In this document: piece after piece, positions 1 to 16,393 of the stretch
How the letters are laid out: every line of letters begins with the position of its first letter
How positions within the stretch are numbered: the first letter of the stretch is position 1
IMG/VR virus record: IMGVR_UViG_3300046373_000115
Coordinates: 1 to 55,290 of that record
Strand: one strand, 5' to 3'
Length of the DNA stretch: 55,290 nt
Source: a virus
Taxonomy: Duplodnaviria; Caudoviricetes
Position numbers and translations under genes: made by a program
Notes under the pieces: generated by a model
The model's input: only the letters and a program-made list of their open reading frames with translations
What the model was told of the DNA's origin: nothing
Database searches by the model: none

Positions 1-127
1 ACAACTCGCCATGTCCCCGGGGAAATGACATCCAAGAGAAAGGGACAGGGACAGGGAGATTAAGTTCCGTTTCTGACGAAACGGGCGCCGATGCGCCGCT
101 GTCGTCCCGACCTCAGTTCGAAGGCAA
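1..127. repeat. 127-bp terminal direct repeat (identical to 55164-55290); circular-contig overlap
   Basis: Bases 1-127 (acaactcgcc...gaaggcaa) match 55164-55290, and an ORF reads in frame across the join. Confidence 0.97.
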
Positions 128-1731: not shown

Positions 1732-2450
1732 ACGCCGACACCAAGCCGAAGCTGGTCTCCGATGAGGAGCAGTTGAGCCGCTTGACCCGGGACGAGGAAC
1801 GCGACCTAGAGCGTGCCGAGCAGGAACTGGCCAGGGCCAAGACAAAGGGCGCCCGCGACACCGCCCGCGACAAGATCGCCAAGATCGCGGCCCGACCGAA
1901 GCAGCGCGTCACCGTCACCGAGCGCCGCGCCGCCCTGGAAGAGACCAAGCGCCTGGCCCGCGCCCGCGGCGAGGAGGTCAACGAGAAGCCCGAACACGGC
2001 GCCGCCGAGATCGAGACCCGCGACGGCCTGAAGCGGATGCGCAAGCTCGGACACCTCACCGAGGAACAGCTTCGCGTCGGCCTGATCTACCGCAGCGCCC
2101 ATGAAGCGCGGGGCTCAAGCCTCAAGGCCTCACAGATCGGCGACAGCGGCGGAGCTGGGCACGACAACGACAAGTTCGTGATGAAGGCGCTCGAGCGGGC
2201 GAAGCTGGCGGAGTTCGTCGGCAAGACCGATCGGGCCGTGGCCCTCGGCTGCATCTCCAACCCGTCGGCGCTGCAGATGCTCCGCCACGTCGCCGGCGAA
2301 GGCGGAAACGTCACCGATTTCGGCAAGGGCAGGGCGCTGGAGCGCAACCGCGAAGGGCTCTCCCAAGCCCTCGACATCGCCCTCAGGGTCTGGCGCGACA
2401 CAGTGGCGCAACATCGGGTGTCGGAGGCCAAACAGGGCACACCATCTTGA
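1728..2450 (+). CDS. putative late transcription regulator (Q-position gene)
   Basis: ATG 1728 coupled to upstream stop; 240 aa, basic and helical; last gene before late promoter and terminase; function inferred from position. Confidence 0.5.
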   Translation: MNADTKPKLVSDEEQLSRLTRDEERDLERAEQELARAKTKGARDTARDKIAKIAARPKQRVTVTERRAALEETKRLARARGEEVNEKPEHGAAEIETRDGLKRMRKLGHLTEEQLRVGLIYRSAHEARGSSLKASQIGDSGGAGHDNDKFVMKALERAKLAEFVGKTDRAVALGCISNPSALQMLRHVAGEGGNVTDFGKGRALERNREGLSQALDIALRVWRDTVAQHRVSEAKQGTPS

Positions 2451-2475
2451 CGCGGAACCCTAATCGTGGTTCCGC
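2447..2475 (+). promoter_or_regulatory. putative late promoter region: TTGACG followed by 8-bp inverted repeat GCGGAACC-N8-GGTTCCGC
   Basis: TTGACG at 2447-2452; repeat arms 2452-2459 and 2468-2475; directly upstream of the packaging genes. Confidence 0.45.
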
Positions 2476-2515
2476 TTGGTTCGTTGAGAATTGCGCCACA
2501 GTTGCGCCCGACATC

Positions 2516-2552
2516 AGCCCCGCCGGTTCACGCCGCGCGGGGTTTTCTGTTT
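2516..2552 (+). terminator. intrinsic terminator in the late leader (tR'-like)
   Basis: CCCCGC (2518-2523) pairs with GCGGGG (2537-2542), followed by TTTTCTGTTT. Confidence 0.6.
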
Positions 2553-2747
2553 CCCGCCCATCGTCACCCCCGCCTATGCACTGAGCCACGGCAACGGCTA
2601 GCGCGGACACGACGACGGACGGCAAGCCTTCGCCCCAGATCAGCCCTACACCCCCAGATGACCAGCCCGCAGCAAGCCGAAGCGCCCTGCTTGAAGTGGT
2701 CTATCCCACTGAGGCCGACCTGCGGGCGAAACCACAAGGAGGCCGAC

Positions 2748-2867
2748 ATGCTCCAAGCGATCGGCTCCGCTCTCGTCACCATCCTTGCTGTGGTGTTCAT
2801 CGCCGGCATGTGCGCCGGATGTGCTGCGACCGTCACGGCGCATAGGGCGCTGAGGGGTTCCCGGTGA
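2748..2867 (+). CDS. small membrane protein (39 aa)
   Basis: Strong AAGGAGG RBS; hydrophobic stretch AIGSALVTILAVVFIAGMCAGC; GTGA overlap with terS. Confidence 0.6.
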   Translation: MLQAIGSALVTILAVVFIAGMCAGCAATVTAHRALRGSR

Positions 2868-3376
2868 GCGACGCTGACCTGCCCAAGATCGGGCGGCCCA
2901 GCGACTTCACCCCGGAGATGGGCGAGAGGATTTGTGAGGCGATCGCCGACGGTGCAAGCCTCCGCTCCATCTGCGAGAGCGCAACGATGCCGAACCGGTC
3001 GACGGTCTTTCGTTGGCTGGCCGATCCGAAGAACGCCGACTTCCGCGACCAATATGCGCGTGCGCGAGAGTTCAGCGGCGACGCAGACGCGGATGACGTC
3101 GCGCACTACTCGCGGCAGGCGGCGGACGGGAAGATCGAACCAGCCGCTGCGACCGCGGCGATCAACGGGCTCAAGTGGTCTGCCGGCAAGCGTAAGCCGA
3201 AGGTCTACGGCGACAAGATTGCCCACGTCGGCGGCGGCCCAGGCGATGCGCCTATCCGCCATCAAGTCGATCTGTCCGGCCTAAGCGATGAGGAGCTTGA
3301 ACAGCTTGAACTCATCCGCAGCAAGCTTGCCGTCGCTGGCGGAGATCAGGGCGGAGAGGGCGCGACGGGCGACTGA
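2864..3376 (+). CDS. terS: terminase small subunit
   Basis: GRPSDFTPEMGERICEAIADGASLRSIC...PNRSTVFRWL HTH typical of Sf6-like TerS; lies before terL. Confidence 0.9.
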   Translation: MSDADLPKIGRPSDFTPEMGERICEAIADGASLRSICESATMPNRSTVFRWLADPKNADFRDQYARAREFSGDADADDVAHYSRQAADGKIEPAAATAAINGLKWSAGKRKPKVYGDKIAHVGGGPGDAPIRHQVDLSGLSDEELEQLELIRSKLAVAGGDQGGEGATGD

Positions 3377-4817
3377 GGCTGAACGCCGGCGCCTGAGGGA
3401 GAACATCGAGGCCATCCGCGATCGCTGCGTCTCCCTGCCGCAGTTCGTCCGCGAGGCCTGGCACATCCTCGAGCCGAACACGAAGCTGGTCTGGAACTGG
3501 CACCTCGACGCGCTCTGCCTTCACCTCGAGGCGATCACCGACGGGACGATCAATCGCCTTCTCGCCAACGTTCCCCCGGGCTCATCGAAGTCCCTGATTG
3601 TGTCGGTGCTCTGGCCGGCTTGGGAATGGGGCCCGAAAGCCCGCCGCTCGCTCCGCTACCTTGCGACTTCGTTCAACGACGGCCCCGTCACCCGCGACAC
3701 CCGCAAGACTCGCGACCTGATCCGGTCGGACTGGTACCAGGCGCTCTGGCCCGAGGTCGTGCTGACCCGTTTCGGCGAGACATCCTTCGCCAACTCCGAC
3801 ACCGGAACCCGTGAGGGCGTTTCGTTCGGATCGCTGACGTCGCAACGCGGCGATCGCCTGATCATCGACGACCCGCACTCGACTGAGACCGCCGAATCCG
3901 ACGCCGAGCGGACGCGGACCACCCGCAAGTTCCGCGAAGGCGCCACCAACCGCCTCAACGACCAAGAACGGTCAGCCATCGTCGTCGTCATGCAGCGCCT
4001 GCACGAGCAGGACATCAGCGGCGTGATCATGTCGCTGGGCATGGACTTCGTTCGGCTCTGCATTCCCATGGAGTTCGAGCCCGAACGCCGCTGCAGGACC
4101 TCGATTGGATGGGAAGATCCCCGGACTAACGACGGCGACCTGATGGACCCTGTCCGGTTCCCGCGCGCCGTGATCGACGCCCTCAAGCGCGACATGGGCT
4201 CGTATGCCTGGGCGGGCCAGTATCAGCAGCGGCCGACGCCTCGCGAGGGCGGCCTGTTCAAACGTCACTGGTTCGAAGGCAAATTCATCAAGGCCGCGCC
4301 GGCCGGGACGATCTGGTGGCGGCACTGGGATTTGGCAGCCACCAAGAAGATCACCGCGGCGCGAACCGCCGGCGTAAAGATGGGTGTCGCGCCAGACGGC
4401 CGGTTCATCGTCGGCCATGTGGTCAAGACACAAGCCGAGGGCGCAGAGGTCCGCAAGCTCATCAAGACTATGGCCGAACTCGACGGCAAGGACGTCGGGA
4501 TCAGCCTGCCCCAGGATCCAGGCCAGGCCGGCAAGGTGCAGAAGCAAGACTACGTCGCGGGCCTGGCAGGCTGGAACGTTCGCGCGGAACCGGAGACCGG
4601 CGACAAGATCACCCGCGCCGAGCCGTTCTCGGCCCAGTGCGAGGCCGGCAACGTCTACTTGGTCGAGGCTGAATGGAATGCCGACTACCTCGACGAGCTC
4701 TGCATGTTCCCGGCCGGCGCCTTCAAGGACCAGGTCGACGCCTCGTCCGGCGCATTCGGCCGGCTGCTGAAGCCCAGGGCCGCGCCTGCGCTCTTCGGCA
4801 CCTACGCGACCAGATAG
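3288..4817 (+). CDS. terL: terminase large subunit (start may be TTG 3327)
   Basis: Walker A-like NVPPGSSKS, Walker B LIIDDPH, VVMQRLH, YQQRP, nuclease WDLA and DQVDA. Confidence 0.95.
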   Translation: MRSLNSLNSSAASLPSLAEIRAERARRATEAERRRLRENIEAIRDRCVSLPQFVREAWHILEPNTKLVWNWHLDALCLHLEAITDGTINRLLANVPPGSSKSLIVSVLWPAWEWGPKARRSLRYLATSFNDGPVTRDTRKTRDLIRSDWYQALWPEVVLTRFGETSFANSDTGTREGVSFGSLTSQRGDRLIIDDPHSTETAESDAERTRTTRKFREGATNRLNDQERSAIVVVMQRLHEQDISGVIMSLGMDFVRLCIPMEFEPERRCRTSIGWEDPRTNDGDLMDPVRFPRAVIDALKRDMGSYAWAGQYQQRPTPREGGLFKRHWFEGKFIKAAPAGTIWWRHWDLAATKKITAARTAGVKMGVAPDGRFIVGHVVKTQAEGAEVRKLIKTMAELDGKDVGISLPQDPGQAGKVQKQDYVAGLAGWNVRAEPETGDKITRAEPFSAQCEAGNVYLVEAEWNADYLDELCMFPAGAFKDQVDASSGAFGRLLKPRAAPALFGTYATR

Positions 4818-4827
4818 GAGGGCGATC

Positions 4828-6345
4828 ATGGCCTCGACGCCCGCAACGCCGAGTTCCGACTACACCGCCATGCTGCCGTACTGGAACATGGTCGAGACGA
4901 TGCTCGATGGCGCTGACGCGATGCGCGCGGCTCTCGAAGCCTACCTGCCGAAGTTTCCCAACGAGACCGAGGCGGACTACACCTATCGAGCGGCGAACGC
5001 CAAGTTCACCAACATCTTCGCCGACATCGTCAGCAACCTCGCCTCCAAGCCCTTCGCCGAGAAGGTGCAACTCGAGGACGGCGCGTCGGAGCGGATCAAG
5101 ACGCTGTCAGAGGACATCGACGGCCGCGGAAACAACCTGCACGTCTTCTCGTCATCGACGTTCTTCTCCGGCATCGCCATGGCGATCGACTGGATCCTGG
5201 TCGACTTCACTCGGGCCAAGCCCCGCCTCGACGGAAAGCCGCTGTCGCTCGCCGAGGAGGCCCAGCAGGGCCTGCGTCCGTACTGGGTGAGCATCCCCGC
5301 CAAGTCGATGATCGCCGTCTACAGCGAGGCGGTGCGCGGCAAGGAAGAGTTCGTTCACGCCCGCATGGTCGAGTGCATCAAGCGCCGCAGCGGATTTGAT
5401 GAAGTCGTGATCGAGCGGGTTCGCCAATTCAACCGCGAGCCGATCCTGGATGACCTCGGAAATGTCGCGGACTATGCCCGTGCTACCTTCACCGTCTGGG
5501 AGAAGGACGCCAAGAGCGCAGCATGGAAAATCGTTGACGCCGGACCGGTCACCATCGGCGTCATCCCCATCGTTCCCTTCATCACCGGGCGCCGCAAGGT
5601 CGGCAGCTGGCGCTTTGTCCCCGCGATGAAAGACGCCGCAGACCTGCAGAAGGAGCACTATCAGCAGGAGACGGCGCTCAAGTCGATCAAGGAGCTGACG
5701 GCATTCCCGATGCTGGCCGGCAACGGCGTCCAGCCAGCGATGGAGGGTGACAAGGTAGTCGCCGTGCCCGTCGGCCCCCGAACCGTTCTCTACGCTCCGC
5801 CCTTTGGCGAAAGCGGCAATCACGGCGAGTGGGCGTTCATCGAACCGAGCGCGGAGTCGCTGCGCTTTCTCTCCGACGACGTCAAAAACACTGAACAGCA
5901 GTTGCGAGAACTCGGCCGCCAGCCGCTGACCGCGACCCAAGGGATCACGGTCGTCTCGGCGGCCTATGCGGGCCAGAAGGCCAGCAGCGCCGTCCAAGCC
6001 TGGGCCTGGCAGCTGAAGGACGCGCTCGAGCAAGCCTACAGGCTGACCGGCCTGTGGCTGCGCGACACGACTCCGACCGTGGTCAAGATTTTCACCGACT
6101 TCGCCCTGGAGATCGGCGACGACAAGGGCCCGGACGCCCTGGCCACCATGCGCAGCACCGGCGATCTCAGCCAGCAGACGCTGTGGGACGAGATGAAGCG
6201 TCGCAACGTCCTTTCATCGGACTTTGACGCGGACGCAGAGCGCCTACGCCTTGAAGAAGAGCTTCCGGACCCGGACAGCGCGGCCGATGCTGAAGCGGCG
6301 CTAACGCCCGAGAAGCAGGCGGAGCAGGACGCGCTCGCCGCATGA
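4828..6345 (+). CDS. portal protein (DUF4055 type)
   Basis: 505 aa directly after terL; YLPKFPNETEADYTYR, WILVDF, RPYW and IPIVPF motifs; GGAGG RBS. Confidence 0.88.
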   Translation: MASTPATPSSDYTAMLPYWNMVETMLDGADAMRAALEAYLPKFPNETEADYTYRAANAKFTNIFADIVSNLASKPFAEKVQLEDGASERIKTLSEDIDGRGNNLHVFSSSTFFSGIAMAIDWILVDFTRAKPRLDGKPLSLAEEAQQGLRPYWVSIPAKSMIAVYSEAVRGKEEFVHARMVECIKRRSGFDEVVIERVRQFNREPILDDLGNVADYARATFTVWEKDAKSAAWKIVDAGPVTIGVIPIVPFITGRRKVGSWRFVPAMKDAADLQKEHYQQETALKSIKELTAFPMLAGNGVQPAMEGDKVVAVPVGPRTVLYAPPFGESGNHGEWAFIEPSAESLRFLSDDVKNTEQQLRELGRQPLTATQGITVVSAAYAGQKASSAVQAWAWQLKDALEQAYRLTGLWLRDTTPTVVKIFTDFALEIGDDKGPDALATMRSTGDLSQQTLWDEMKRRNVLSSDFDADAERLRLEEELPDPDSAADAEAALTPEKQAEQDALAA

Positions 6346-6863
6346 TCGACCCGGCCGCCTTCATTCACCCCAAGGCCCACGTCGAGGGCTCTGAAATCGG
6401 CCCAGGCTGCAAGGTATGGCAGTTCGCCACCATCACCCGGGGCACGCGCCTTGGGAAAGGCTGCAGCGTCGCTCCATTCGCGCTACTCGACGGCGCTGAG
6501 TTTGGCGACCGCTGCGTGATCTCGATGCACGTCGCCATAGGAGCCGGCTTCGTGATCGGCGACGACTGCTTCATCGGGCCGAATGTCGTGTTCGCAAACG
6601 ACGCCTGGCCGTCGGCGGACAAGGCCGGCTGGGATTACGATGCGCTGGCGTCTGGCCAACTCGTCACCATCCGGATCGGCAATCGTGTCAGCATCGGCGC
6701 TAACGCGGTCATTCTTCCGGGCGTGACCCTTGGCGACAGCTGCTTCATCGGCGCTGGCGCCGTCTGTGGCGTCAATGTCCCAGCTGGCCACCTTTTCAAG
6801 CGCGATGGCTCGATCGTCGAGATCAACCCTGCCTGGACCAAGCGCCGGATGCGCGCCGCGTGA
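6342..6863 (+). CDS. hexapeptide-repeat (left-handed beta-helix) acyltransferase, similar to sugar N-acetyltransferases
   Basis: IHPKAHV, IGDDCFIGPNVVFAND, IGNRVSIGANAVILPGVTLGDSCFIGAGAV repeats. Confidence 0.9.
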   Translation: MIDPAAFIHPKAHVEGSEIGPGCKVWQFATITRGTRLGKGCSVAPFALLDGAEFGDRCVISMHVAIGAGFVIGDDCFIGPNVVFANDAWPSADKAGWDYDALASGQLVTIRIGNRVSIGANAVILPGVTLGDSCFIGAGAVCGVNVPAGHLFKRDGSIVEINPAWTKRRMRAA

Positions 6864-7474
6864 TCACCATCGCGACGCTACTCTGGGATCCGAACGCGAC
6901 CAGCCTAGCGTTCTCACGCTGTTACAACGAGGCGTGGGTCGACAAGCTCTATCGCGGGTTCGCCCGCAACCTGACCCATCCTTTCCGGTTCGTGTGCTTC
7001 ACCGACCGGCCGCGGACATTCGCCGAGCCCATCGACCAGGTCGCGATCCGATCCGCGACCCCGGGCTACGGCGACTGCGTCCAGCCCTTCGAGCTCGACT
7101 GCCCGATGATCCTGGTCGGCCTTGACACCATAATCACCGGCAACATCGACCACCTCGCCGCCTTCTGCCTGGAAGCGGAGGTCATCGGCCTGCCGCGCGA
7201 TCCGTTCAAGCCCAGTCAGGCCTGCAACGGCATCGTCCTCTCGCCGGCCGGCATGCGCCACGTCTGGGACAGCTGGGCCGGCGCGAACGACATGGAGCAT
7301 ATGCGGGCCCAAGACCACGTCTTCATTGACGACGTCTTTCCGGGCCACGTCCAGAGCTTTAAGGGCGCTGTGCGCGACCAAGGACTCGGGGACACCCGCA
7401 TCGTCTACTTCCACGGCTACGAGAAGCCTCACGAATTGCCGAGCATGCCCTGGATCGCTGAGCACTGGCGGTGA
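6860..7474 (+). CDS. putative GT-A fold glycosyltransferase (GT8-like phage family)
   Basis: WVDKLYRGFARNLTHPFRFVCFTD, GLDTIITGNID and IVYFHGYEKPH pattern. Confidence 0.7.
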   Translation: MITIATLLWDPNATSLAFSRCYNEAWVDKLYRGFARNLTHPFRFVCFTDRPRTFAEPIDQVAIRSATPGYGDCVQPFELDCPMILVGLDTIITGNIDHLAAFCLEAEVIGLPRDPFKPSQACNGIVLSPAGMRHVWDSWAGANDMEHMRAQDHVFIDDVFPGHVQSFKGAVRDQGLGDTRIVYFHGYEKPHELPSMPWIAEHWR

Positions 7475-8019
7475 AAGCCGCTCTTGTCCTCGGCGGTGCG
7501 GGTAACGTCTGGGAAGATCTCGACGCAGCGCTGGGCCTTGGTGAGTTCGACGGCGTCATCGCCTGCAACGATGTCGGGGCCGCCTATCCTGGCGATCTGG
7601 ACGCCTGGGTCAGCCTTCACGCCGAGAAGTTCGGCATCTGGACCGCCCAGCGCGTCGCCGCCGGCAATTCCTGGCCCAAGGCTATCCTGGCCCATGCTCA
7701 GGCCAACAAGGGCCTTCCGCCCTGCGTCACCGGCCGCACAGACTTTCGCTTCCCCGGCCAGCCCACAACGGGATCGTCCGGCCTCTTCGCGCTGAAGGTC
7801 GCGCTGATCGACCTAGGCTTTGATCGAGCAGTTCTCTGCGGCGTGCCCATGGCGGCGGCCGCTGGCCACTTCTTCGACCTCGCGGCCTGGACGGCCGTGA
7901 CGTCTCACATGCAGGGCTGGAAAGAGGCTCTGCCGCACATCAAGAACCGGGCCCGCTCGATGAGCGGCTGGACCAGGGATCTCCTGGGCGCGCCGGACGA
8001 GGAATGGCTGGGCCAGTAG
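7471..8019 (+). CDS. Rossmann-like putative transferase (MptE/Maf/GT29-like fold), paralog 1
   Basis: LVLGGA, VIACND, GSSGLFAL, AVLCGVPM...GHF motif order; clear paralog at 14054. Confidence 0.55.
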   Translation: MKAALVLGGAGNVWEDLDAALGLGEFDGVIACNDVGAAYPGDLDAWVSLHAEKFGIWTAQRVAAGNSWPKAILAHAQANKGLPPCVTGRTDFRFPGQPTTGSSGLFALKVALIDLGFDRAVLCGVPMAAAAGHFFDLAAWTAVTSHMQGWKEALPHIKNRARSMSGWTRDLLGAPDEEWLGQ

Positions 8020-8029
8020 CCCACCAGAC

Positions 8030-8061
8030 AGCCCGCGCGAGGTGATCACGGCGGGCTTTTT
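8030..8061 (+). terminator. intrinsic terminator after the modification cassette
   Basis: AGCCCGC...GCGGGCT stem followed by TTTT. Confidence 0.65.
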
Positions 8062-8104
8062 CATGCGCGGGACGCGCGACCACCATCCGGGAAGGATTGA
8101 CCCC

Positions 8105-8899
8105 ATGGCGCTCAAAGCCATTCTGACCAAGCTCGAAGACGCGCCGGAAGCGCTTCGCGAGCACTATCAGCCGGGCGCAGCCGCCGACGGCACCGAAGGC
8201 AAGTTCGTTCTGAAGGTGGAGCCGGTCGAAGGCTTCGCGCTTGAGAACGTCACTGGCCTGAAGTCGGCCCTCGGCGCCGAACGCACCCAGCGCGAGCGCC
8301 TGGAAAAGGATGTCGTCAAGTTCAAGGATCTCGACCCGGATCGCGCCCGCGCCGCCCTGATCGAGCTCGAAGAGCTGAAGAAGATCGACCCGGCCTCCGA
8401 GGCCGACAAGATCGCCAACACCAAGTTCGAAGCGGCCCGCGCCCAGCTGCTGGAAAAGCACACCGGCGAGCTCACCGGCCGCGACCAGCGCATCGGCTTC
8501 CTCACCGGCACTGTCGACGAACTGCTCCGCGAGCAGCGCGCCACCGCGGCGATCGCTGAAGCCAAGGGCTCGGTCGATCTGCTGCTGCCGCACGTCCTGA
8601 AGAACACCCGCACCGTCGAGAAGGACGGAAAGTTCTTCGTCGAGGTCATCGACGCCGCAGGCAACGTCCGCATCGCCGACGGCAAGGGCAATCCGATGCA
8701 GATGTCCGATCTGGTCGCCGAGATGCGCAAGCACGAGACCTTCGCGCGCGCCTTCGACGGCGACGGGCAATCCGGATCTGGCAAGGAACACGATCAAGGC
8801 GGCGGCGGAGGTGGTGGCGGCGCCGGCAGCTTCGGCGGTTCGCGTGAGGAACGCCAAGCCGCCATCGCCGCGAAATTCCCCGGCCTGCCCGCAAGGTAG
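8105..8899 (+). CDS. capsid scaffolding protein
   Basis: Charged coiled-coil protein (MALKAIL...GLKSALGAER) with Gly-rich C-terminus, directly before the capsid gene. Confidence 0.85.
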   Translation: MALKAILTKLEDAPEALREHYQPGAAADGTEGKFVLKVEPVEGFALENVTGLKSALGAERTQRERLEKDVVKFKDLDPDRARAALIELEELKKIDPASEADKIANTKFEAARAQLLEKHTGELTGRDQRIGFLTGTVDELLREQRATAAIAEAKGSVDLLLPHVLKNTRTVEKDGKFFVEVIDAAGNVRIADGKGNPMQMSDLVAEMRKHETFARAFDGDGQSGSGKEHDQGGGGGGGGAGSFGGSREERQAAIAAKFPGLPAR

Positions 8900-9010
8900 A
8901 CCGCCACAGCACGCCTGGGTTCTCGGGATGAGGGCCAGCGACCGAAGCGGGGAGGGATCCCCCGCACCAAAACCCCCGAGAACCCAACCCCCAAGCTTTA
9001 GGAGCTACCC

Positions 9011-9997
9011 ATGTCGCTGACCCAAATGAAGGTCTTCAACGAATACATCATGCCCGCCACGATCGAGACCCTGGGTCAGATGGTGGAGAAGTTCAACGCG
9101 GCCTCGCGCGGCGCCATCCGCCTGACGATGGAGGGCTTCACCGGCGACTTCCTGCAGGAGTCGTTCTTCGCCGCGGTCCACTCGGCCCAGCGCCGCGTGG
9201 ACCGCTACGCCTCGAACGGCGCGGCCTCGGTCACCGATCTGACCGAGCTGAAGCGCTCGTCGGTCAAGATCGCCGGCGGCTTCGGTCCGATCCGCTACGA
9301 GCCGTCGCAGCTGACCTGGCTGCAACGCCCGACCGCCCAGGGCATCGAGGTCGCGTCGCGCAACTTCGCCGAAGCGATGCTGAAGGACCAGCTGAACACC
9401 GCCATCGCCGCGCTGGTCGCCGCGATCGAGAACCAGTCCACGGCCACCTATAACGGCCTGGCCTCGTCCCCCGACCTGGGCATCAGCTACCCGACTATCA
9501 ACGCCTCGCACGCCAAGTTCGGCGACCACTCGGGCGATCTGGTGGCCGAGGTGATGACCGGCAGCGTTTACCACAAGCTGATCGGCCAGAACCTGACCAA
9601 CGCCGCGCAGCTGTTCACCGCCAGCGGCGTGACCATCGTCGACATCCTGAACAAGGCCGTCATCGTCACCGACGCCCCGGCCCTCTATCAGACCGCCTCG
9701 CCGGTCTCGAAGGAGAAGGTGCTCTCGCTGGTCGACGGCGCGGCCGTCGTCTTCGATGGCGGCGACGTGATCTCCAACATCGAGACCACGAACGGCAACA
9801 GCCGCATCGAGACCACGATGCAGGTCGACTACACCTTCGGTCTGGGCCTGAAGGGCTACACCTGGGACGAGACCAACGGCGGCAAGTCGCCCACCGACGC
9901 TGAACTGGCGACCGGCTCGAACTGGGACAAGGTCGCCAGCGACATCAAGCACACCGCCGGCGTCATCGCCGTCGGTGCGGCCAACATCGGTAACTAA
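9011..9997 (+). CDS. major capsid protein
   Basis: 328 aa, AGGAG RBS, strong codon bias; MKVFNEYIMPATIETL, KFNAAS, GYTWD..GGKSPTDAELATGSNW and KHTAGV typical of this MCP family. Confidence 0.92.
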   Translation: MSLTQMKVFNEYIMPATIETLGQMVEKFNAASRGAIRLTMEGFTGDFLQESFFAAVHSAQRRVDRYASNGAASVTDLTELKRSSVKIAGGFGPIRYEPSQLTWLQRPTAQGIEVASRNFAEAMLKDQLNTAIAALVAAIENQSTATYNGLASSPDLGISYPTINASHAKFGDHSGDLVAEVMTGSVYHKLIGQNLTNAAQLFTASGVTIVDILNKAVIVTDAPALYQTASPVSKEKVLSLVDGAAVVFDGGDVISNIETTNGNSRIETTMQVDYTFGLGLKGYTWDETNGGKSPTDAELATGSNWDKVASDIKHTAGVIAVGAANIGN

Positions 9998-10057
9998 GCC
10001 TGCAATCGAGGGGCCGGCGGGAAGCTGGCCCCTCTCTCGCTCTGACGGGAGGATCCC

Positions 10058-10624
10058 ATGAGCAAGACCATCGAGCTGATCTATTCGGACCAGACGAGCG
10101 ACTTCGTTCCGGGCCGCGCCTACAGCAACCCCCGGTTCTTCACCTCGGCACGTAGCGGCGTCTCGAAGGTGTTCCTGGTCGGCCAGTGGCCCAACATCGA
10201 ATCGGCCTATCTCGCCCGCGATGTGCCGGTCGAACATCTCGATATCGCACCGCGCGCCGAGCCCCTGATCGCCGTTCCGCCGCCCAAGACGGACGTCGAC
10301 GCCGGCAACGTTGCCATCCCCGACGATTGGGCCGGTCTGGCCTGGCCGAAGTTGCGCGCCCTGGCCAGCAGCGTCTCGGCCGCCCCCATCATCAACTCCG
10401 CCGGCGCCCGCGCCGCGATCGAGGCTGAACTGGCCCGCCGCGTTGTCGACATCCTGGATCCGCTCGACCGGCCGATCGACGAGGTCGGCGGCCTGACGCT
10501 GCGCCAGCTGCACGCCGACATCGCCGGCCTGGGCCTCGACGTCGACCCAACCATGAGCCCGGCCGACCTGTTGGCTCTCCGCGATCTGCACCGCGAAGAG
10601 CGCGACAAACAGGGCGTGGAATAG
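10058..10624 (+). CDS. hypothetical head-associated protein
   Basis: 188 aa after MCP, GGGAGG RBS, IPDDWAGLAWPKLRALA helical segment. Confidence 0.65.
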   Translation: MSKTIELIYSDQTSDFVPGRAYSNPRFFTSARSGVSKVFLVGQWPNIESAYLARDVPVEHLDIAPRAEPLIAVPPPKTDVDAGNVAIPDDWAGLAWPKLRALASSVSAAPIINSAGARAAIEAELARRVVDILDPLDRPIDEVGGLTLRQLHADIAGLGLDVDPTMSPADLLALRDLHREERDKQGVE

Positions 10625-10627
10625 CCG

Positions 10628-11047
10628 ATGACCACGATCGCCTATCGTGATGGCGTGATGGCCGCCGACACCCAGATCAACAGCGGCAACGGCTGTCGGG
10701 CGGGTTCGATCACCAAGATCGGACAGACGGCGGACGGGCATTGGTGGGGCTTCTCCGGCAACACCGAAATGCAAGCTGCGTGCGTCGACTGGGCTGAAAG
10801 CCGCACCGGTAACCCTCCTGAGATTGACGGGGTCCTGATCATCGTGGATCCGGCCGGCGACAAGCGCGAATGGTGGGGTAAGGGCTGGCTCGTTTGCGAC
10901 GACGAGCAAGCGGCTTGGGGCAGCGGCGAGCGGATTGCTCGGGGCGCAAAGTTCGTCGGCGGCTCCGCCGTCCAAGCCGTCCAGGCCGCCATCGCGCTGG
11001 ACCTTGAGAGCGGCGGCGAAGTCACCGTCCTGCGCAGGGAGGCCTGA
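10628..11047 (+). CDS. HslV/proteasome-like Ntn peptidase
   Basis: N-terminal MTTIA...MAADTQ, KI, GSG...A.GA and AVQAAIALD.ESGG signature. Confidence 0.8.
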   Translation: MTTIAYRDGVMAADTQINSGNGCRAGSITKIGQTADGHWWGFSGNTEMQAACVDWAESRTGNPPEIDGVLIIVDPAGDKREWWGKGWLVCDDEQAAWGSGERIARGAKFVGGSAVQAVQAAIALDLESGGEVTVLRREA

Positions 11048-11049
11048 CT

Positions 11050-11565
11050 ATGGCGCTGATCGTCACCCCCGGCGCCGGAAACGCCGACGCCTTCGTCGAA
11101 GTGGCCGACGTCACCGCCTACGCCGCGGCGCACGGCCTGACCTGGGTGGCGACGACCTCGGTCGCTGAGCCCGCTATCCGTCGGGCGACGATCGCCCTGT
11201 CGACCGGCTTTCACTGGAAGGGCTACCGGACCAGCGGTCGGGCCCAATCGCTGGCCTGGCCCCGGACGGACGTCGAGGACGCCGAGGGCGAGACGGTCAA
11301 CCCCGACAGCATCCCCGCCGAGATCTTCGCCGCATGCTGCGAGATGGCGGTCTATGAGCAGGCCAGCCCTGGCGGCCTGTCGCCGACCGTGATCCTGACC
11401 GACCGGGTCAAGCGCGAGCGGATCGGACAGATCGAAACTGAATACGCGTCTAGCGCTATGACGGCCGAAGCCGCGCGTCCGATCCTGACCAGGGTCAACG
11501 ACCTGATCTCCGGGTTGCTCGCCGGCTCCAACAACCCGCTCGTCGGGACGGCGGCCCGCTGGTGA
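11050..11565 (+). CDS. head-tail adaptor (DnaT-like family)
   Basis: MALIVTPG..NADAFV, QSLAWPR, IP.EI..ACCE.A, VKRERIG.IETEY. Confidence 0.8.
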   Translation: MALIVTPGAGNADAFVEVADVTAYAAAHGLTWVATTSVAEPAIRRATIALSTGFHWKGYRTSGRAQSLAWPRTDVEDAEGETVNPDSIPAEIFAACCEMAVYEQASPGGLSPTVILTDRVKRERIGQIETEYASSAMTAEAARPILTRVNDLISGLLAGSNNPLVGTAARW

Positions 11566-11921
11566 CCGCCTTCGACTACTCACGGCCGCTCGCAACCGCC
11601 GACCGCCTGATCAAGCGCTACGGCCAGACCGGCGTCCTCCGCCGCATCGTCTCCACCGGCCCGGCGAACAACCCGACGCAGACGAAGACCGACTACGACG
11701 CGGTGTTCGCGGTCCTGGATTATGAGAACCGCCAGATCGACGGCACCCGGATCCTTGCCACAGACAACCTCGTCTATCTGTCTGCGAAGGATCTGCCCAT
11801 CAAAGTCGCGGTGACCGACAAGCTGGTTGACGCCGAGGGTTTGGTTTACAACATCATTCGACCCAAGCGCCTCTCGCCGGCGGGCGTCATTGTCTATTAC
11901 GAGATCCAGGCCAGAAGGTAG
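11562..11921 (+). CDS. head closure / head-tail joining protein
   Basis: ADRLIKRYG, IDGTRILATD, SPAG...YEIQAR; position in neck module. Confidence 0.75.
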   Translation: MTAFDYSRPLATADRLIKRYGQTGVLRRIVSTGPANNPTQTKTDYDAVFAVLDYENRQIDGTRILATDNLVYLSAKDLPIKVAVTDKLVDAEGLVYNIIRPKRLSPAGVIVYYEIQARR

Positions 11922-11924
11922 CGG

Positions 11925-12152
11925 TTGAGCGACGAAGCCATCATCCCGCCGAGCCTGGGCGCCCTGGCCACATGGACAGAGCTTGAAGCGACCGCTGGGC
12001 TGCTGATGGTCGCCGCGATCCGAAACGACGCCAAGGAGTCCGAAGCACTCCGGCGCAAGGCTCACGACATCCTAGACCACCACCTCGACTGCAAGATCGC
12101 GACCATAGCGGCGATCCGCGAGCGGGTGCGGAAGCAGAACGACTCCATCTGA
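11925..12152 (+). CDS. hypothetical protein
   Basis: 75-aa ORF filling the gap between neck genes. Confidence 0.55.
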   Translation: MSDEAIIPPSLGALATWTELEATAGLLMVAAIRNDAKESEALRRKAHDILDHHLDCKIATIAAIRERVRKQNDSI

Positions 12153-12162
12153 AAGGCCAGGC

Positions 12163-13191
12163 ATGACGCGACAACAGCGCCTCTTTGAGGAGCTGCTGGC
12201 CCGCTATGCGCCCGAGGTCGCCGCAGCCTTTCGCGAGGCGGTGGCGGACATCGCTGCGCAGGCTGACCTGCAACGGATCATCACTGCGCTCCAGCGGGGC
12301 GACATCGATGCGGCGATCGAGGCGCTGCATCTGGACCCGGCGGCCTATGCCAAGATCGAGGACGCCATCCGCTCGGCCTACAACGCGGCGGGGCAGGGCG
12401 CCGTCTCCACCCTGCCCAAGATCACCGACGGCCAGGGCCACGCCGTCGTCATCCGCTTCGATGGCCGCAACTACCGCGCCGAGGCCTGGCTGCGGTCCAA
12501 CTCGGCCGATCTGGTCACCCGCATTGTCGACGACCAGCGCGCCGCCGTCCGCGCCGCGCTCACCGAGGGCATGGTCAAGGGCCAGAACCCGCGCACCGTC
12601 GCGCTCGACATCGTCGGCCGCACCAACCGCGCCACAGGGGCCCGGGAAGGCGGCATCATCGGCCTGACCAGCCAGCAGGAAGAATACGCCCGCACGGCCC
12701 GCGAGGAGCTTGCCAGCAGCGATCCGGCCCTGCTGCGCCACTACCTCACCCGGACGCGCCGCGATAAGCGGTTCGATCGATCCGTCACCAAGGCGATCCG
12801 CGAGGAAAAGCCGGTCCCGGCCGATATCGTGGGCAAGGCGACGGTCGCCTATAAGCGCCGGCTGCTCCAGCTGCGCGGCGAGACCATCGGCAAGGTCGAG
12901 GCCTTCACCGCGATTGCCGAGGGCAAGCACGAAGCCTTCGCCCAAGCCGTCGACGCCGGGAAGATCAGCGCGGCCGAGATCACCAAGACCTGGCGCCACT
13001 TCCCGAGCGAGCATCCTCGGCTTCAACACATCGCCATGGCCGGCAAGAAGGCGGGCTTCAGCGAGGACTTCGTTCTCCCCGACGGTACGCGGATGCGCTA
13101 CCCGCACGACCCGCGCGCGCCGATCAAGCATCGGGCCGGCTGCAAATGCCAGGCCGACTACCGCATCGATTTCCTCGCCGGCCTGACCTAG
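12163..13191 (+). CDS. MuF-like head morphogenesis (minor head) protein
   Basis: C-terminal KTWRH...R..H, F.LPDG..MRYPHDP..P..H..GCKC motif. Confidence 0.8.
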   Translation: MTRQQRLFEELLARYAPEVAAAFREAVADIAAQADLQRIITALQRGDIDAAIEALHLDPAAYAKIEDAIRSAYNAAGQGAVSTLPKITDGQGHAVVIRFDGRNYRAEAWLRSNSADLVTRIVDDQRAAVRAALTEGMVKGQNPRTVALDIVGRTNRATGAREGGIIGLTSQQEEYARTAREELASSDPALLRHYLTRTRRDKRFDRSVTKAIREEKPVPADIVGKATVAYKRRLLQLRGETIGKVEAFTAIAEGKHEAFAQAVDAGKISAAEITKTWRHFPSEHPRLQHIAMAGKKAGFSEDFVLPDGTRMRYPHDPRAPIKHRAGCKCQADYRIDFLAGLT

Positions 13192-13628
13192 TGGCCAAGT
13201 CCGCTACGGCTACCGTCTCCGCCTGGGTCTTGGAGACGAAAGCCCGCATGCTCGCCGTTCGGAACGAAAGCGCCCAGCGCATCGTCGAGATCGCCCAGAC
13301 GCCTATGTCGGAAGGTGGGCGGATGCGGGTCGACACCGGCTTCCTCCGCGCCTCCCTAGTGGCGTTCACGGGCGACGCCGGCATGCCGGCGGCCCGGGCC
13401 AATCCCGGGGGAAAGTTCACCTACGACGCCGGCGCGATCTCGCTCGTGATCCTCGGCGCCGACCTCGATGACAAGCTGACCTTCGCCTATACCGCCAACT
13501 ATGCCCGGCCGCGCGAATACGGCGCGAACGGCCAGCCACCCGATGCCTTTGTCCGCATGGCCGCCCAGCAATGGGGTCGAGTCGTCGGCGAGGTCTGCAT
13601 CGAAGCAAGAGGGAAGGCCGCGAAATGA
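13191..13628 (+). CDS. HK97 gp10-like neck protein
   Basis: RVDTGFLRAS, YTANYARPREYG, PDAFVRMAAQQW; GTG overlaps upstream TAG. Confidence 0.8.
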   Translation: MAKSATATVSAWVLETKARMLAVRNESAQRIVEIAQTPMSEGGRMRVDTGFLRASLVAFTGDAGMPAARANPGGKFTYDAGAISLVILGADLDDKLTFAYTANYARPREYGANGQPPDAFVRMAAQQWGRVVGEVCIEARGKAAK

Positions 13629-14050
13629 CGATCGCCACCAAGCCCTTCCTGATCCCGCAGGCCCTGCTGGACTACGTCGATCAGGTCGCTCTGGGCCTGG
13701 ACATGCCGGTCGCTCGGCCGGAGATCAACGCCGACCCCGAGACCGACGACAACGGCCAGATCAAGCCGTTCCTCCGCATCGACTACCTACCCAACCGCCT
13801 GAAGTGGGAGGGCCTGGCCTCGGGCCGCATCGATCAGGGCCTGCTTCAGATCACCGTCACCTTCCCGCCCAATCGGGGCATCCTCGCGCCGGCGGAGATT
13901 ATCGGTCAGGTGCTCGCCGCGTTCGCGAAGGGCGCCACCCTTCAAGCCGACGACGTCACGGTGCGGATCGACAAGGAGCCCTGGGTTTCGGCCCAAATCT
14001 CGGAAAGCGATCGCGTCGGCTATCCGATCTCCATTCCCTGGATCGCCTAG
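13625..14050 (+). CDS. tail terminator protein
   Basis: FLRIDYLPN, GLLQITVTFP, PISIPW; position before the tail tube gene. Confidence 0.75.
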   Translation: MTIATKPFLIPQALLDYVDQVALGLDMPVARPEINADPETDDNGQIKPFLRIDYLPNRLKWEGLASGRIDQGLLQITVTFPPNRGILAPAEIIGQVLAAFAKGATLQADDVTVRIDKEPWVSAQISESDRVGYPISIPWIA

Positions 14051-14053
14051 CGG

Positions 14054-14818
14054 GTGATCGCTCTCGTTCTCGGCGGCGCGCCCTCGGTCTGGACGGATCT
14101 GGCGGCGGCTAAAGCCATGCTCGCCGGCCAGCGCCACCTGATCGTGGCCGCCAACCTCGCCGGCATCCACCACCAGGGCCCGCTCGACGCCTGGGCGACC
14201 CTTCACCCTGAACATCTCGACGAGTGGACCGAGGCGCGCGGGCAGGGCGGCTATCGCGTGTTCTCGCCTGCCAAGGTCTGCGACTGCGTCGACGTGGAGG
14301 TCGCTCCCGAGCGCTGGAACGGATCGTCGGGCCTCTACGCCCTCCAGATCGCGCTCGAGCAGATGAACGCCTCGGCCGCCATCCTCTGCGGCGTCCCGAT
14401 GGAGCAAGCGGCCGGCCACTTCCTCACCGGCGGGCCATGGGCGCCAGTCACGTCCTACCGCCAAGCCTTCGCCGCCGCGCTTCCGATCCACGGCGGCCGG
14501 GTCCGCTCCATGGGCGGCTGGACCGCCGACCTGTTCGGAACACCAAGCCCCGCCTGGATCGCCGCCGCCTCCACCATGAAGCCCGGCCAGCGTGGTCGGC
14601 CAGCAAGGACCCGACCCATGCACAAGGTGACCAACACCTCGAAAACCACCCAGCGCTTCAACGCCATCCGCCCCGAAGGCGGCTTCGACCTGGTCCGTCT
14701 CGCGCCGGGGGAGAGCAAGGACGTCGAGATCGACACCATGCAGCCCAAGTTCACGGGCGGCGCCCTGAAGGTCGATGAGATCAAGCCCACCAAGGCCGCC
14801 GGCAAGCCCGAAGCCTGA
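14054..14818 (+). CDS. Rossmann-like putative transferase, paralog 2, with about 66-aa C-terminal extension
   Basis: Aligns by eye to 7471..8019 (ALVLGGA.SVW.DL, LDAW..LH.E, GSSGL.AL, LCGVPM...GHF, RSM.GWT.DL.G.P); internal ATG 14618 preceded by AAGGA. Confidence 0.6.
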   Translation: MIALVLGGAPSVWTDLAAAKAMLAGQRHLIVAANLAGIHHQGPLDAWATLHPEHLDEWTEARGQGGYRVFSPAKVCDCVDVEVAPERWNGSSGLYALQIALEQMNASAAILCGVPMEQAAGHFLTGGPWAPVTSYRQAFAAALPIHGGRVRSMGGWTADLFGTPSPAWIAAASTMKPGQRGRPARTRPMHKVTNTSKTTQRFNAIRPEGGFDLVRLAPGESKDVEIDTMQPKFTGGALKVDEIKPTKAAGKPEA

Positions 14819-14897
14819 CCACCAACGCCACCGGCCATCGGTGCGTCCTCGCGCGGCATCTGCCGTGCTCCTCCATCCAGCAATTTAGGAGACCTCC

Positions 14898-15359
14898 ATG
14901 GCTGGTTCCACTGATGCACAAACCGCCGCCGGCTCGACCATCGCGATCTCGGCCGCGCTCCCCGCTGCCGTCACGCCGACCGGCTATGCGGCCCTGTCCT
15001 ACACCCTGATCGGCGAAGTGACCGAGCTGCCGGCCATGGGCCGCACCTACAACGAGGTCACGCATTCGCCGCTGGCCGAACGCGGCGTGGTCAAGCTGAA
15101 GGGCTCCTACAACGACGGGACCCTGACGGTTCCGGCCGCCTACGCCCCCGGCGACGCCGGCCAGGTACTCGTCAACACCGCCCTCGACGACGACGACTAC
15201 TACAGCTTCAAGACCGTGCTGCAGGACGGAACGATCCGTTACTGCCAGGCCCGCGTCATGAGCGCGCCGATCACCCCGGGCGGCGTCGACTCCGTCGTCA
15301 CCGTGGCCATCGGCTTGTCCGTCAAGTCGGGCTCCATCGTGACCGTGCTGCCGGCCTAA
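14898..15359 (+). CDS. major tail (tube) protein
   Basis: TAAGSTIAIS..LPA, IGEVTELPAMGRTYNEVTH.PL..R...KLKGSYNDG; AGGAG RBS. Confidence 0.85.
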   Translation: MAGSTDAQTAAGSTIAISAALPAAVTPTGYAALSYTLIGEVTELPAMGRTYNEVTHSPLAERGVVKLKGSYNDGTLTVPAAYAPGDAGQVLVNTALDDDDYYSFKTVLQDGTIRYCQARVMSAPITPGGVDSVVTVAIGLSVKSGSIVTVLPA

Positions 15360-15437
15360 GACCGGCGCCAAAACAGCTACTCCCCTCAACTTTACGCGCC
15401 GGTCGCGCCGGCGTGCTTTTTCCCGAAAGGAAGAGCC

Positions 15438-15884
15438 ATGTTCGACATCTCCACCATCGACGTCGCCGATACGTTCGAAGTCCAGATCAAGCATCCCAAG
15501 ACGGGCGACGTCATCATCGTCGGCGGCGAAGCCAAGGTCGTCGAGGGTGAAACGGTGACCGTCGGCGGCGCGGCCATGTCAGTCACGGTCTACGGCCCCA
15601 GCTCGCGCCAGTATCGTTCGGCTCAGTCGGTGGCCAGCGCCAAGCTGATCAAGCGCCTCCGCGCCAAGACCGAGCCGGACCCCGATGAAGACACGGCGGC
15701 TACGGCGGCGTTCTTGTCGGCCTGCACCGTGTCTCTCAATAACTTCGGCTACAAGGGGCAGAGCGAAGGCCGGGAGGCCTATCGTGCGCTCTATCTCGAC
15801 CCGAAGATGGGCTGGCTGACCGAACAGGTGAACAGCGCCATGGGCGATTGGGCCAATTTTACGAAGGCCTCCTCGACCAGCTGA
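15438..15884 (+). CDS. tail assembly chaperone (gpG-like)
   Basis: Between tube and tape measure genes; ends ...WLTEQV...GDWANFTK. Confidence 0.8.
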   Translation: MFDISTIDVADTFEVQIKHPKTGDVIIVGGEAKVVEGETVTVGGAAMSVTVYGPSSRQYRSAQSVASAKLIKRLRAKTEPDPDEDTAATAAFLSACTVSLNNFGYKGQSEGREAYRALYLDPKMGWLTEQVNSAMGDWANFTKASSTS

Positions 15885-16393
15885 TCCTCTACGTCCGCCA
15901 CACGGCCTGGCTGCATGCGACCCCCAAGGACTCCAAGGGGAAAGCGGCGGCCAGGTCACGGCTGGAGAGCTTCAGGATCGACGAGGAGGCGGGCCGGACC
16001 CGCATCGAGTTGATCATGCCGCCCATCGAGGGCGGCGACTACATCGTCGGATACCTCTTCGAGGTCGGCCCCTCATGTGCCGGCGAGCCGCTGTCGTTCT
16101 GCGAGATCGAGGCCTGGGCGCGGCAGACCGGCCGCATCCTGAACTGTTGGGAGCCGGTCGCGCTTAAGCGGCTGTCAAACTCGTACCTCGCCGAGCTTCA
16201 GGCCGCCGAGGCGCACGATCGGCCGGCGCCCAACGCCGTTGTCGTCGCTAAGCCGCCGGTCTCGCGCAAGGTCATCTCTGACCAGCTAGGCGCAATTTTC
16301 GACCGGCTGGCGGCCCAGGACGCCAAGCACGCACCGCCCGTCCGTCAGCCCCGTCCGCCCCGACCACCTCGCCCAGGGAGATCAAGACCATGA
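15848..16393 (+). CDS. tail assembly chaperone gpT-like, -1 frame extension
   Basis: Overlaps the gpG end in the -1 frame; YLFEVGP, LSFCEIEAW.RQTG..L..WE...LKRLS..Y. Confidence 0.75.
   Translation: MGQFYEGLLDQLILYVRHTAWLHATPKDSKGKAAARSRLESFRIDEEAGRTRIELIMPPIEGGDYIVGYLFEVGPSCAGEPLSFCEIEAWARQTGRILNCWEPVALKRLSNSYLAELQAAEAHDRPAPNAVVVAKPPVSRKVISDQLGAIFDRLAAQDAKHAPPVRQPRPPRPPRPGRSRP

Follow-up and report, generated by a model that had tools for sequence, protein, structure and literature searches.

How the ratio of scaffolding protein to capsid protein is set in tailed phages is known in outline only for P22, and to our knowledge the RNA target of scaffold autoregulation in that phage has never been defined. 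The DNA considered here is the complete 55,290 bp genome of a soil phage, with direct terminal repeats and a G+C content of 66% (IMG/VR record IMGVR_UViG_3300046373_000115, positions 1 to 55,290; this whole stretch is referred to as the window), in which short hairpins with GGGAN pentaloops stand in the leaders of the head scaffolding protein and major capsid protein genes. Comparison with relatives identified these hairpins as a real, strand-specific and conserved RNA element that is tied to the scaffold family. The likeness to P22 would consist in a scaffold gene under post-transcriptional feedback, which is our reading of the window, and in an N-terminal determinant; according to the Introduction of a preprint (10.1101/2022.12.13.520362), the N-terminus of the P22 scaffolding protein has been implicated in translational autoregulation.

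In form, the hairpins can be set beside several familiar RNA signals. The MS2-type coat/replicase hairpin is likewise short, with a sequence-specific loop, and one hairpin of the phage similarly lies over a ribosome-binding site, and the E. coli thrS operator has two like hairpins that suit a dimer. There is no homology to either, and the phage carries copies far from start codons (hp0, hp1, hp2 and a post-capsid hairpin, described below). Sites for CsrA/RsmA share a GGA in the loop, two copies per leader and one copy over the Shine-Dalgarno (SD) sequence, but the phage loop is one base shorter, has no leading A and belongs to a family in which GGA is not conserved. The boxB hairpins of lambdoid nut sites have stems of about 5 bp, purine-rich pentaloops and loop classes that vary by phage. 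The phage loops, of the general form G-N-G-A-N, are compatible in sequence with a GNRA-like fold, G1 and A4 being able to form a sheared pair, but unlike boxB they lie at head genes, in tandem and with one over the SD. Intrinsic terminators resemble hp0 and the hairpin at 10008-10034 in form and position, and relatives have clear terminators there; the four leader hairpins hpA, hpB, hp1 and hp2 are not terminators, and the post-capsid hairpin has no U run. Judged from sequence, the G-N-G-A-N hairpins are a widespread and uncatalogued class of RNA, which we would place among the operator hairpins.

The closest described system is phage YuA, whose scaffold protein gp55 is approximately 32% identical to that of the window. 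The leaders of the two phages are homologous, each with two hairpins of the same size and with loop starts 20 and 30 nt apart in YuA against 20 and 29 nt in the window, but the YuA loops are GUGAU and GUGAG rather than GGGAN. Transcript ends and sequence conservation within Yuavirus have been reported (PMC10914365). Among the literature searched, the YuA transcript was the only part of the system in print, and the accessible part of that source makes no mention of the hairpin motif or of its spread. Three short motifs were not found in six supplementary files of a set of 10,006 viral structured-RNA candidates (PMC10690425), of which the remaining three files may list the element.

Hairpins of the head-gene leaders in the window

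The scaffold gene (8105-8899; 264 aa, phrog_206) and the major capsid protein gene (9011-9997; 328 aa, Pfam Gp13-like PF20036, E 1.2e-121) lie on the + strand, as do the leader and post-capsid hairpins described next and the other head-module genes. Hairpin scanning and folding placed two hairpins in the scaffold leader, hpA, TGCGC[GGGAC]GCGCG (8064-8078), and hpB, ATCC[GGGAA]GGAT (8085-8097), with loop starts 20 nt apart. The loop and 3' arm of hpB form the SD of the scaffold gene, 8 nt before the ATG at 8105, in agreement with an earlier sequence-only note on this DNA (the original prediction), which had described a hairpin over the scaffold SD. Upstream, at the end of the open reading frame (ORF) 7471-8019, is a terminator-like hairpin, hp0 (8030-8060), with a 7-bp stem and a 13-nt loop containing GAGGTGATC, followed by TTTTT; it was not listed by the terminator scan because its loop is longer than 8 nt.

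Two further hairpins occupy the capsid leader. The first, hp1, GGTTCTC[GGGAT]GAGGGCC (8918-8936), was obtained from the hairpin scan and from folds of partial transcripts, and the second, hp2, GCGGGG[AGGGATC]CCCCGC (8947-8965), from folding; their loop starts are 29 nt apart. The 5' half of hp1 overlaps the 5' arm (8916-8927) of a long-range helix, P1, whose 3' arm CCCGAGAACCCA (8975-8986) ends 24 nt before the capsid AUG and which encloses hp2 as an apical hairpin. In the minimum-energy fold of the leader, the 12-bp P1 takes the place of hp1.

After the capsid gene, GAGGGGCCGGC[GGGAA]GCTGGCCCCTC (10008-10034) forms a hairpin of 11 bp with one G-U pair, followed by TCTCGCTC; four of the next eight bases are T, without a U run. 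A 4-bp hairpin, GGGA[GGA]TCCC (10047-10057), covers the SD of the following gene, ORF 10058, and has no conserved counterpart in the relatives. The terminator scan listed no + strand site in any of the three head-gene spacers. All six motifs of the original prediction were located correctly (CGGGACG at 8068-8074, CGGGAAG at 8088-8094, CGGGATG at 8924-8930, AGGGAT at 8953-8958, CGGGAAG at 10018-10024 and CGGGAGG at 10046-10052). By structure, four are pentaloop hairpins of the GGGAN kind, a fifth caps a hairpin and the sixth is the unconserved SD hairpin. The proposal that three consecutive leaders share the motif goes too far; it holds for the scaffold and capsid leaders, the third having mainly a strong terminator-like hairpin.

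Over the window as a whole the motif is common. CGGGANG occurs 31 times on the + strand of the 55,290 nt, five of these in the three head-gene spacers (256 nt in total), and hairpins with a GGGAN pentaloop and a stem of at least 4 bp number seven on the + strand and one on the - strand. The + strand total is at chance level (5.9 ± 2.4 in 30 first-order Markov simulations), whereas four of the seven lie inside the head-gene spacers, which make up 0.46% of the window; in the comparison with chance that had been recommended, the hairpins stand out by their placing and not by their number. Folding z-scores of the three spacers were +0.41, -1.81 and -2.25, the scaffold leader being no more stable than shuffled sequence and the lowest value belonging to the spacer after the capsid gene. 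With an ordinary count and folding energies that are weak evidence, the comparative data are decisive. G-U pairs are present in the stems of hp1, of the hairpin after the capsid gene and of hpA in one relative (L068; relatives are cited by such numbers where needed), and together with the strand bias of seven to one they suggest that the element acts as RNA rather than DNA.

A further GGGAC hairpin, TCGTC[GGGAC]GGCGG (11540-11554), lies inside the adaptor ORF, 17 nt before the head-closure gene, and is probably due to chance, since it is not present in L001, L108 or L110. Hairpins with UCCC loops were found 28 times on the + strand and 23 times on the - strand, none at a telling place; a phage small RNA whose UCCC loops would kiss the GGGA loops was dropped as a candidate because no such hairpin was suitably placed.

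Conservation in relatives and cultured phages

Relatives were collected by scaffold-protein searches of IMG/VR, genomes and metagenomes, which gave 54 IMG/VR loci and 56 metagenome loci in addition to a sample of 145 phage records. Tandem hpA and hpB with GGGA(A/C/U) loops, the second over the SD, were present in 35 of 38 distinct leaders of the phrog_206-type scaffold, bearing out the expectation of conservation and, through compensating changes in the stems, of covariation. A third G-N-G-A-N hairpin occupies the place of hp0, 55-71 nt before the AUG, in 28 of the 38; its pentaloop is mostly GUGAU and otherwise GUGAA, GCGAU, GAGAC or GGGAC. The sequence GGTGATC of the hp0 loop region persists also in the L085 group, in which it does not code for protein, and in several relatives (L082, L084, L108, L110 and others) the TGA stop of the upstream gene lies in the loop. 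This stretch is presumably complementary to 16S rRNA near its 3' terminus, adjoining the anti-SD.

Within a subset of 27 leaders the pair is present in 26, always with loops of the form C[GGGAH]G. The loop of hpA is GGGAA in 14, GGGAC in 10 and GGGAU in two, and that of hpB is GGGAU in 16 and GGGAA in 10; GGGAG was found in none of these hpA and hpB loops. The gap between the stems is 3-11 nt and the distance between loop starts 15-24 nt, with the end of the hpB loop 5-14 nt before the AUG. Stem sequences vary in compensated form, as GCGC/GCGC, GTGC/GCAC, GGGC/GCCC and GCGGCA/TGTCGC in hpA and as ATCC/GGAT, TTCC/GGAA, TCAC/GTGA, AGCAA/TTGCT and CTCC/GGAG in hpB. When 22 distinct scaffold leaders were aligned with MAFFT, paired cells amounted to 97.7% against 90.5 ± 1.1 after shuffling, and four of eight pairs showed double changes, a value matched by none of 500 shuffles. 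The helix of hpA had 100% of cells paired and double changes in one of four pairs, and that of hpB had double changes in three of four. A covariance model of the pair found a single site in the window, at 48.7 bits, with the runner-up at 9.4; applied to five host genomes it found one strong site in each, at the prophage (46.9-55.5 bits), all others scoring at most 18.5 bits among the 150 candidates scored per genome. Two look-alikes of hpA scored 7.6 and 9.4 bits in the window: GCGC[CGGAA]GCGC within the scaffold ORF (8136-8160) and GCGC[CGGAT]GCGC before the start of a glycosyltransferase gene (6837-6870).

The position of hpB raises the question of whether the hairpins merely present SD-like loops, as display or standby elements through which the two most abundant head proteins would be translated more strongly. 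The hpB loop of L108/L156, 5 nt from the AUG, is the sole purine-rich SD candidate there, the single hairpin of L229 and L230 shows GGGAG just before the AUG, and the spacers are rich in C and A and free of G; the presumed complementarity of the hp0 loop region to 16S rRNA would also fit. On this explanation, however, the fifth loop base might be expected to be G at least on occasion, as G would extend SD pairing, and it never is in hpA or hpB; CGAGY, GAGAU and GCGAC loops found at the same places are not SD-like, and L106 has a separate canonical SD after the pair. We consider SD display highly improbable.

The element follows the scaffold type rather than its surroundings. Leaders of other scaffold types, all from phages that share the capsid family, served as the control; they were drawn from 80 loci (of 275) related through the capsid protein, and the first ATG in each ORF was taken as the start codon. 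Of these 45 distinct leaders, 44 contained no G-N-G-A-N hairpin. These 80 loci mostly have scaffold-capsid spacers of 10-25 nt without the element, and the more distant RcSpartan, KL1, HHBS29_1 and K1H, which share the capsid family, have other leader hairpins and none of the G-N-G-A-N form. Conversely, the pair is retained beside a capsid gene of another family (L086, L087, L100 and L104), in L151 and L170, where the gene directly after the scaffold stop opens with the residues seen in those four loci and may be of their capsid family, in PaMx28 and Xp12 without a following capsid gene, and in loci where the gene upstream of the scaffold differs. Where the loops depart from GGGAH, both members of the pair are altered together, to CGAGU in L106 and L107, CGAGC in L177 and GGAAU in L169. 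GANTC methylation sites were dropped as a cause of the CGAGU loops because L177 has CGAGC.

These comparisons refute the view that GC-rich spacers and SD sequences simply yield functionless motifs. The seven hairpins against 5.9 ± 2.4 expected are what that view would predict, and two of the six motifs overlap SDs; however, the pair is found in 35 of 38 leaders against its absence from 44 of 45 controls, its stems show compensating changes and it persists at 27-36% scaffold identity.

Among other scaffold types with the same capsid family, repeated small hairpins with like loops were also observed in the scaffold leaders of L042, L061/L066, L015 and the L004/L031 and L021/L027 groups, for example C[GGAT]G three times in L042, C[AGT]G twice in the L004 group and C[GAT]G in the L021/L027 group. 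Placing several hairpins with a common loop ahead of the scaffold gene may be a widespread plan that exists in many specificities.

The capsid leader was examined in 22 distinct spacers of 94-129 nt in which this scaffold type adjoins this capsid type. P1 appeared in all 22 minimum-energy folds as a long-range helix of 9-12 bp, with the core TCTCGGG/CCCGAGA common to 20; in L068 and L108/L156, GGGATGA... is paired with another downstream partner instead. Two positions flanking the core covary (U-A in 4 against G-C in 19; U-A in 18, G-C in 3 and C-G in 1). A column alignment gave 70.8% of cells paired against 63.0 ± 1.2 and double changes in 10 of 18 pairs, which 16 of 500 shuffles reached; this count is diluted because in several rows both the MAFFT and the model-fitted alignment put the 3' arm one column off, and per-sequence folds with an anchored count were used in its place. 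The anchored count, from which L068 was dropped and in which L110 was given a wrong 3' arm and L108/L156 stand in a shifted register, gave a paired fraction of 0.684 against 0.624 ± 0.016, reached by none of 1,000 shuffles. In partial transcripts ending before hp2, hp1 folds in 15 of 16 cases, the exception being L084, as a hairpin of 9-11 bp whose lower stem covaries (CTGG/CCAG, GCTGCT/AGCGGC, CCGCT/GGCGG and GCCGTT/GACGGC), and in L116, where a G has been added, both strands that pair with it, in hp1 and in P1, carry an additional C. The loop of hp2 holds GGGA in every spacer, the window and 21 others. The folds hp1 and P1 are mutually exclusive, and both look to be under selection.

Homologues of the scaffold are present in the 145 phage records, of which seven were inspected. 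Two tandem G-N-G-A-N hairpins precede the scaffold gene in six of these cultured phages (YuA, Bordetella LK3, PaMx28, Xp12, RcSimone-Hastad and Bradyrhizobium BDU-MI-1), whose scaffolds are 27-36% identical. Their loops include GUGAG and GUGAU in YuA, GAGAU and GUGAC in PaMx28, GCGAC and GUGAU in Xp12, and GGGAC, GGGAU and GGGAU in BDU-MI-1. YuA, LK3 and RcSimone-Hastad carry a pair before the capsid gene as well, with loop starts 29-32 nt apart. The seventh, Brevundimonas phage Delta (L192), has none before the scaffold gene and two GGGAUA-hexaloop hairpins before the capsid gene. The GUGAU, GAGAU and GCGAC loops of distant phages show that the invariant letters are G1, G3 and A4 and not GGA, so that GGGAN is, as far as the sequences indicate, a local state, with G as second letter, of the wider G-N-G-A-N class.

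For YuA, transcript ends are available from Putzeys et al. (2024; PMC10914365). Among the ends given there, a start at 38492 falls on the second base of the first scaffold-leader hairpin, and a second start at 39396 precedes the capsid-leader pair; 3' ends are given at 39519 and 39736, and the segment 39396-39519 is named as a candidate non-coding RNA derived from the 5' untranslated region, with promoter P015. The small-terminase leader of the same phage (L194, 33417-33520) carries GUGAG and GUGAU hairpins downstream of a start at 33417; the loop of the final hairpin takes in part of the annotated ATG, and 3' ends at 33511 and 33553 follow just after.

These data bear on a control of the nut/boxB kind, in which a small phage protein on the nascent hairpins would alter the behaviour of polymerase at nearby terminators, here hp0, the YuA 3' ends before and inside the capsid gene and the post-capsid hairpin. 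The hairpins are of boxB-like size, with 4-6 bp and a purine-rich pentaloop compatible with a GNRA-like fold; in YuA they start at +1 to approximately +65 of two primary transcripts, and among the reported ends many transcripts there stop early, at 39519 and 39736; and the terminator-like hairpins of the family have G-N-G-A-N loops themselves. Such a control nevertheless appears improbable to us, given that a scan for stretches rich in K and R returned 16 ORFs or frames, none convincing as N-like, that the overlap of hpB with the SD points to translation and that hp0 precedes hpA and hpB instead of following them.

A strong hairpin after the capsid gene is present in nearly all relatives, many of which have a UUCG-type loop there and a U run. 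Loops of the GGGAT or GGGAA form are found in L001, L104, L110 and one small L081 hairpin; the UUCG-type loops of many relatives indicate that the post-capsid function does not need a GGGA loop, though this phage group often uses one. In L081, GCGC[GGGAT]GCGC directly follows the capsid stop codon. An extra gene is inserted between the capsid gene and the homologue of ORF 10058 in L081 (4389-5118) and in L003/L084, preceded by a hairpin of 12-13 bp with a 9-10 nt loop.

Hairpins of this kind could be passive architecture without any reader, protecting 5' and 3' ends and acting as partial terminators, with a loop that amounts to a stable GNRA-like tetraloop plus one base. The conserved post-capsid hairpin with its many UUCG-type loops and U runs fits such a role, as do the terminator-like hp0 of the window and the L085 group and, from the YuA ends reported, a scaffold transcript that begins at the foot of the first hairpin, the place of classic 5' stabilisers. 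What it does not explain is the fixed five-base loop with an invariant third G, the lack of the usual stable tetraloops in 35 of 38 leaders, the simultaneous change of the two loops in each of three lineages, or the weak 4-bp stems in a leader no more stable than its shuffles. We regard this explanation as unlikely, if the least so of the alternatives to a specific reader.

Candidate readers and proposed control

The hairpins were originally described as sites of the CsrA/RsmA type, and a host CsrA/RsmA that binds GGA loops and represses head-gene translation would find textbook geometry here: GGA is exposed in the loop of a short hairpin, and each leader has two sites 20-29 nt apart, one of them over the SD. 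The absence of a CsrA-like gene from the phage, also stated at the outset, was confirmed (PF02599 in none of one phage genome), but the domain was equally absent from all five host genomes with related prophages, and it was detected in only 29 of 151 sampled genomes of the class to which these prophage hosts belong. In all 26 leaders the loop is C[GGGAH]G, so that the A one or two bases before GGA in the CsrA consensus is absent, and the GUGAU, GAGAU and GCGAC loops of relatives have no GGA. Those with GUGAU belong to phages whose hosts presumably do have RsmA. The CsrA explanation is thus largely refuted and survives only as a very remote prospect.

A change of neighbours does not separate the hairpins from the scaffold gene, which implies that their reader is either common to all hosts or encoded together with the scaffold. 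In an alignment of 31 scaffold proteins, 13 columns are invariant among the 28 with G-N-G-A loops, down to 29% identity. Twelve of the 13 persist in the three proteins with switched loops, and only Arg60, which in the window lies within the motif GLKSALGAER in the N-terminal quarter of the protein, is replaced, by Q in L106 and L177 and by M in L169. In L217 the residue is L, and the first hairpin has the loop GGAAU and the second a larger loop containing GGAAA. In the metagenome set (44 distinct leaders from 49 of the 56 loci, some contigs duplicating IMG/VR loci), 22 leaders combine a readable motif with a pair of G-N-G-A-N hairpins, and every one of them has R at this position. The switched-loop scaffolds fall in two separate clades of a FastTree phylogeny, in which branch supports were not inspected. 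The aside on P22 scaffold autoregulation in the original prediction gains some support from this covariation of Arg60 with the loop.

Considered together, the comparative data are consistent with the hairpins being operators for a loop-specific RNA-binding factor that acts after the initiation of transcription, with the scaffold protein, acting autogenously, as the best candidate; we hold this proposal to be about evenly balanced between right and wrong. Post-transcriptional control of head-protein synthesis by an RNA binder, as first suggested, remains the best reading. The operators would form a class with a G-N-G-A-N pentaloop on a stem of 3-6 bp, mostly closed by C-G, that marks the 5' leaders of scaffold and capsid genes in siphophages with this scaffold family. 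At the scaffold leader, a dimeric reader would bind the twin hairpins and, seated on the second, which holds the SD, would block the ribosome. At the capsid leader, P1 is envisaged to invade through the exposed GGGAU loop of hp1, and a reader bound to that loop would decide between the hp1 and P1 folds. If the scaffold protein is the reader, the outcome would be autogenous control of the P22 type, by which the making of head proteins would depend on how much scaffold is not yet assembled. We infer the binding of a factor, its identity as scaffold and an effect on translation.

In its most specific form, the proposal makes the scaffold a sequence-specific RNA-binding protein that reads the twin hairpins of its own and the capsid message (in YuA, also that of the terminase) by a surface that includes the invariant Arg60 and flips hp1/P1 according to free scaffold, with loop and protein specificity having changed together at least twice. 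This form is tentative and, on present sequence comparisons, probably wrong in some part. Its extension to a large family of proteobacterial siphophages, comprising the YuA-, PaMx28- and Xp12-like phages and the temperate phages of Caulobacterales and Rhizobiales, is put forward with similar reserve, as a possibility that we rate below an even chance.

Several observations weigh against a scaffold-borne reader or against regulation as such. The unremarkable stability of the scaffold leader has been described above, and the hpA helix offers little covariation because its stems are nearly invariant GCGC/GCGC. The capsid-leader hairpins lie at least 40 nt from the SD, so that any effect on capsid translation would be indirect, and the GUGAN hairpins of the YuA terminase leader mean that a scaffold reader would need to control the terminase too. 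No Pfam RNA-binding domain was detected in the 82 ORFs scanned. The AlphaFold model of the scaffold is mostly helical (mean predicted local distance difference test score, pLDDT, 73.5) and has residue 60 within a long helix modelled at low confidence (block pLDDT 48-67), and a Foldseek search of the model against the PDB returned no match at E <= 0.001 and no RNA-binding fold. The link between Arg60 and the loop amounts to only two evolutionary events, and Arg60 is kept in five distant relatives with a single hairpin (L224, L229, L230, L231 and L234), in two of which, L229 and L230, the GGGAG loop of that hairpin is simply the SD.

Genomic setting and implications

The head module of the window begins with the small terminase (2864-3376), large terminase (3288-4817) and portal (4828-6345) genes. 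Between portal and scaffold stand genes for a hexapeptide acyltransferase (6342-6863) and a glycosyltransferase (6860-7474) and the ORF 7471-8019 that precedes the scaffold gene, the last of which we take, by eye, to resemble sugar transferases of the DUF115/Maf type. The trio occupies the same place in L003, L081, L083, L084, L108-L110 and L113 and gives the impression of a fixed cassette for sugar modification that belongs to the head module, rather than of a moron. The gene after the capsid gene, ORF 10058 (10058-10624; 188 aa), matches phrog_21114 at its N-terminus and is followed by the adaptor and head-closure genes.

Markers of a temperate phage were found, namely integrase-family ORFs, cI/Cro-like helix-turn-helix proteins, a GcrA-like protein and an N6 methylase. 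The two ORFs of the phage-integrase family (26573-27151 and 30307-31536) lie on opposite strands, and the GcrA-like regulator and an N6/N4 DNA methylase are encoded at 49733-50365 and 51393-52163, in the early or replication region. GcrA and CcrM are drivers of transcription in Caulobacter, and by analogy the regulator and methylase of the window may drive late transcription. Related prophages occur in Caulobacter, Brevundimonas, Phenylobacterium, Shinella, Mesorhizobium, Phyllobacterium and a Rhizobiales bacterium, strains of Shinella granuli and Phenylobacterium kunshanense being among them. A scan of positions 1-20000 for promoters of the sigma-70 type, whose scope does not extend to alphaproteobacterial promoters, returned no site against 1.6 expected. 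The comparison with Rfam that had been recommended gave no family: the whole window had no match at gathering score, and the seven weak matches in 7950-10150 (E 1.3-3.6) were all far under their gathering scores.

The analysis adds an RNA family to a part of the genome that is usually annotated as plain spacer, and provides a residue that is a candidate for reading the loops, an RNA switch predicted from folding and natural variants whose specificity has changed. A compact and possibly orthogonal pair of hairpin and reader may be of use for engineering. For the phages themselves, a precise and mutable RNA signal has been defined at the head genes, common to dozens of lineages that include the tractable YuA, PaMx28, Xp12 and RcSimone-Hastad.

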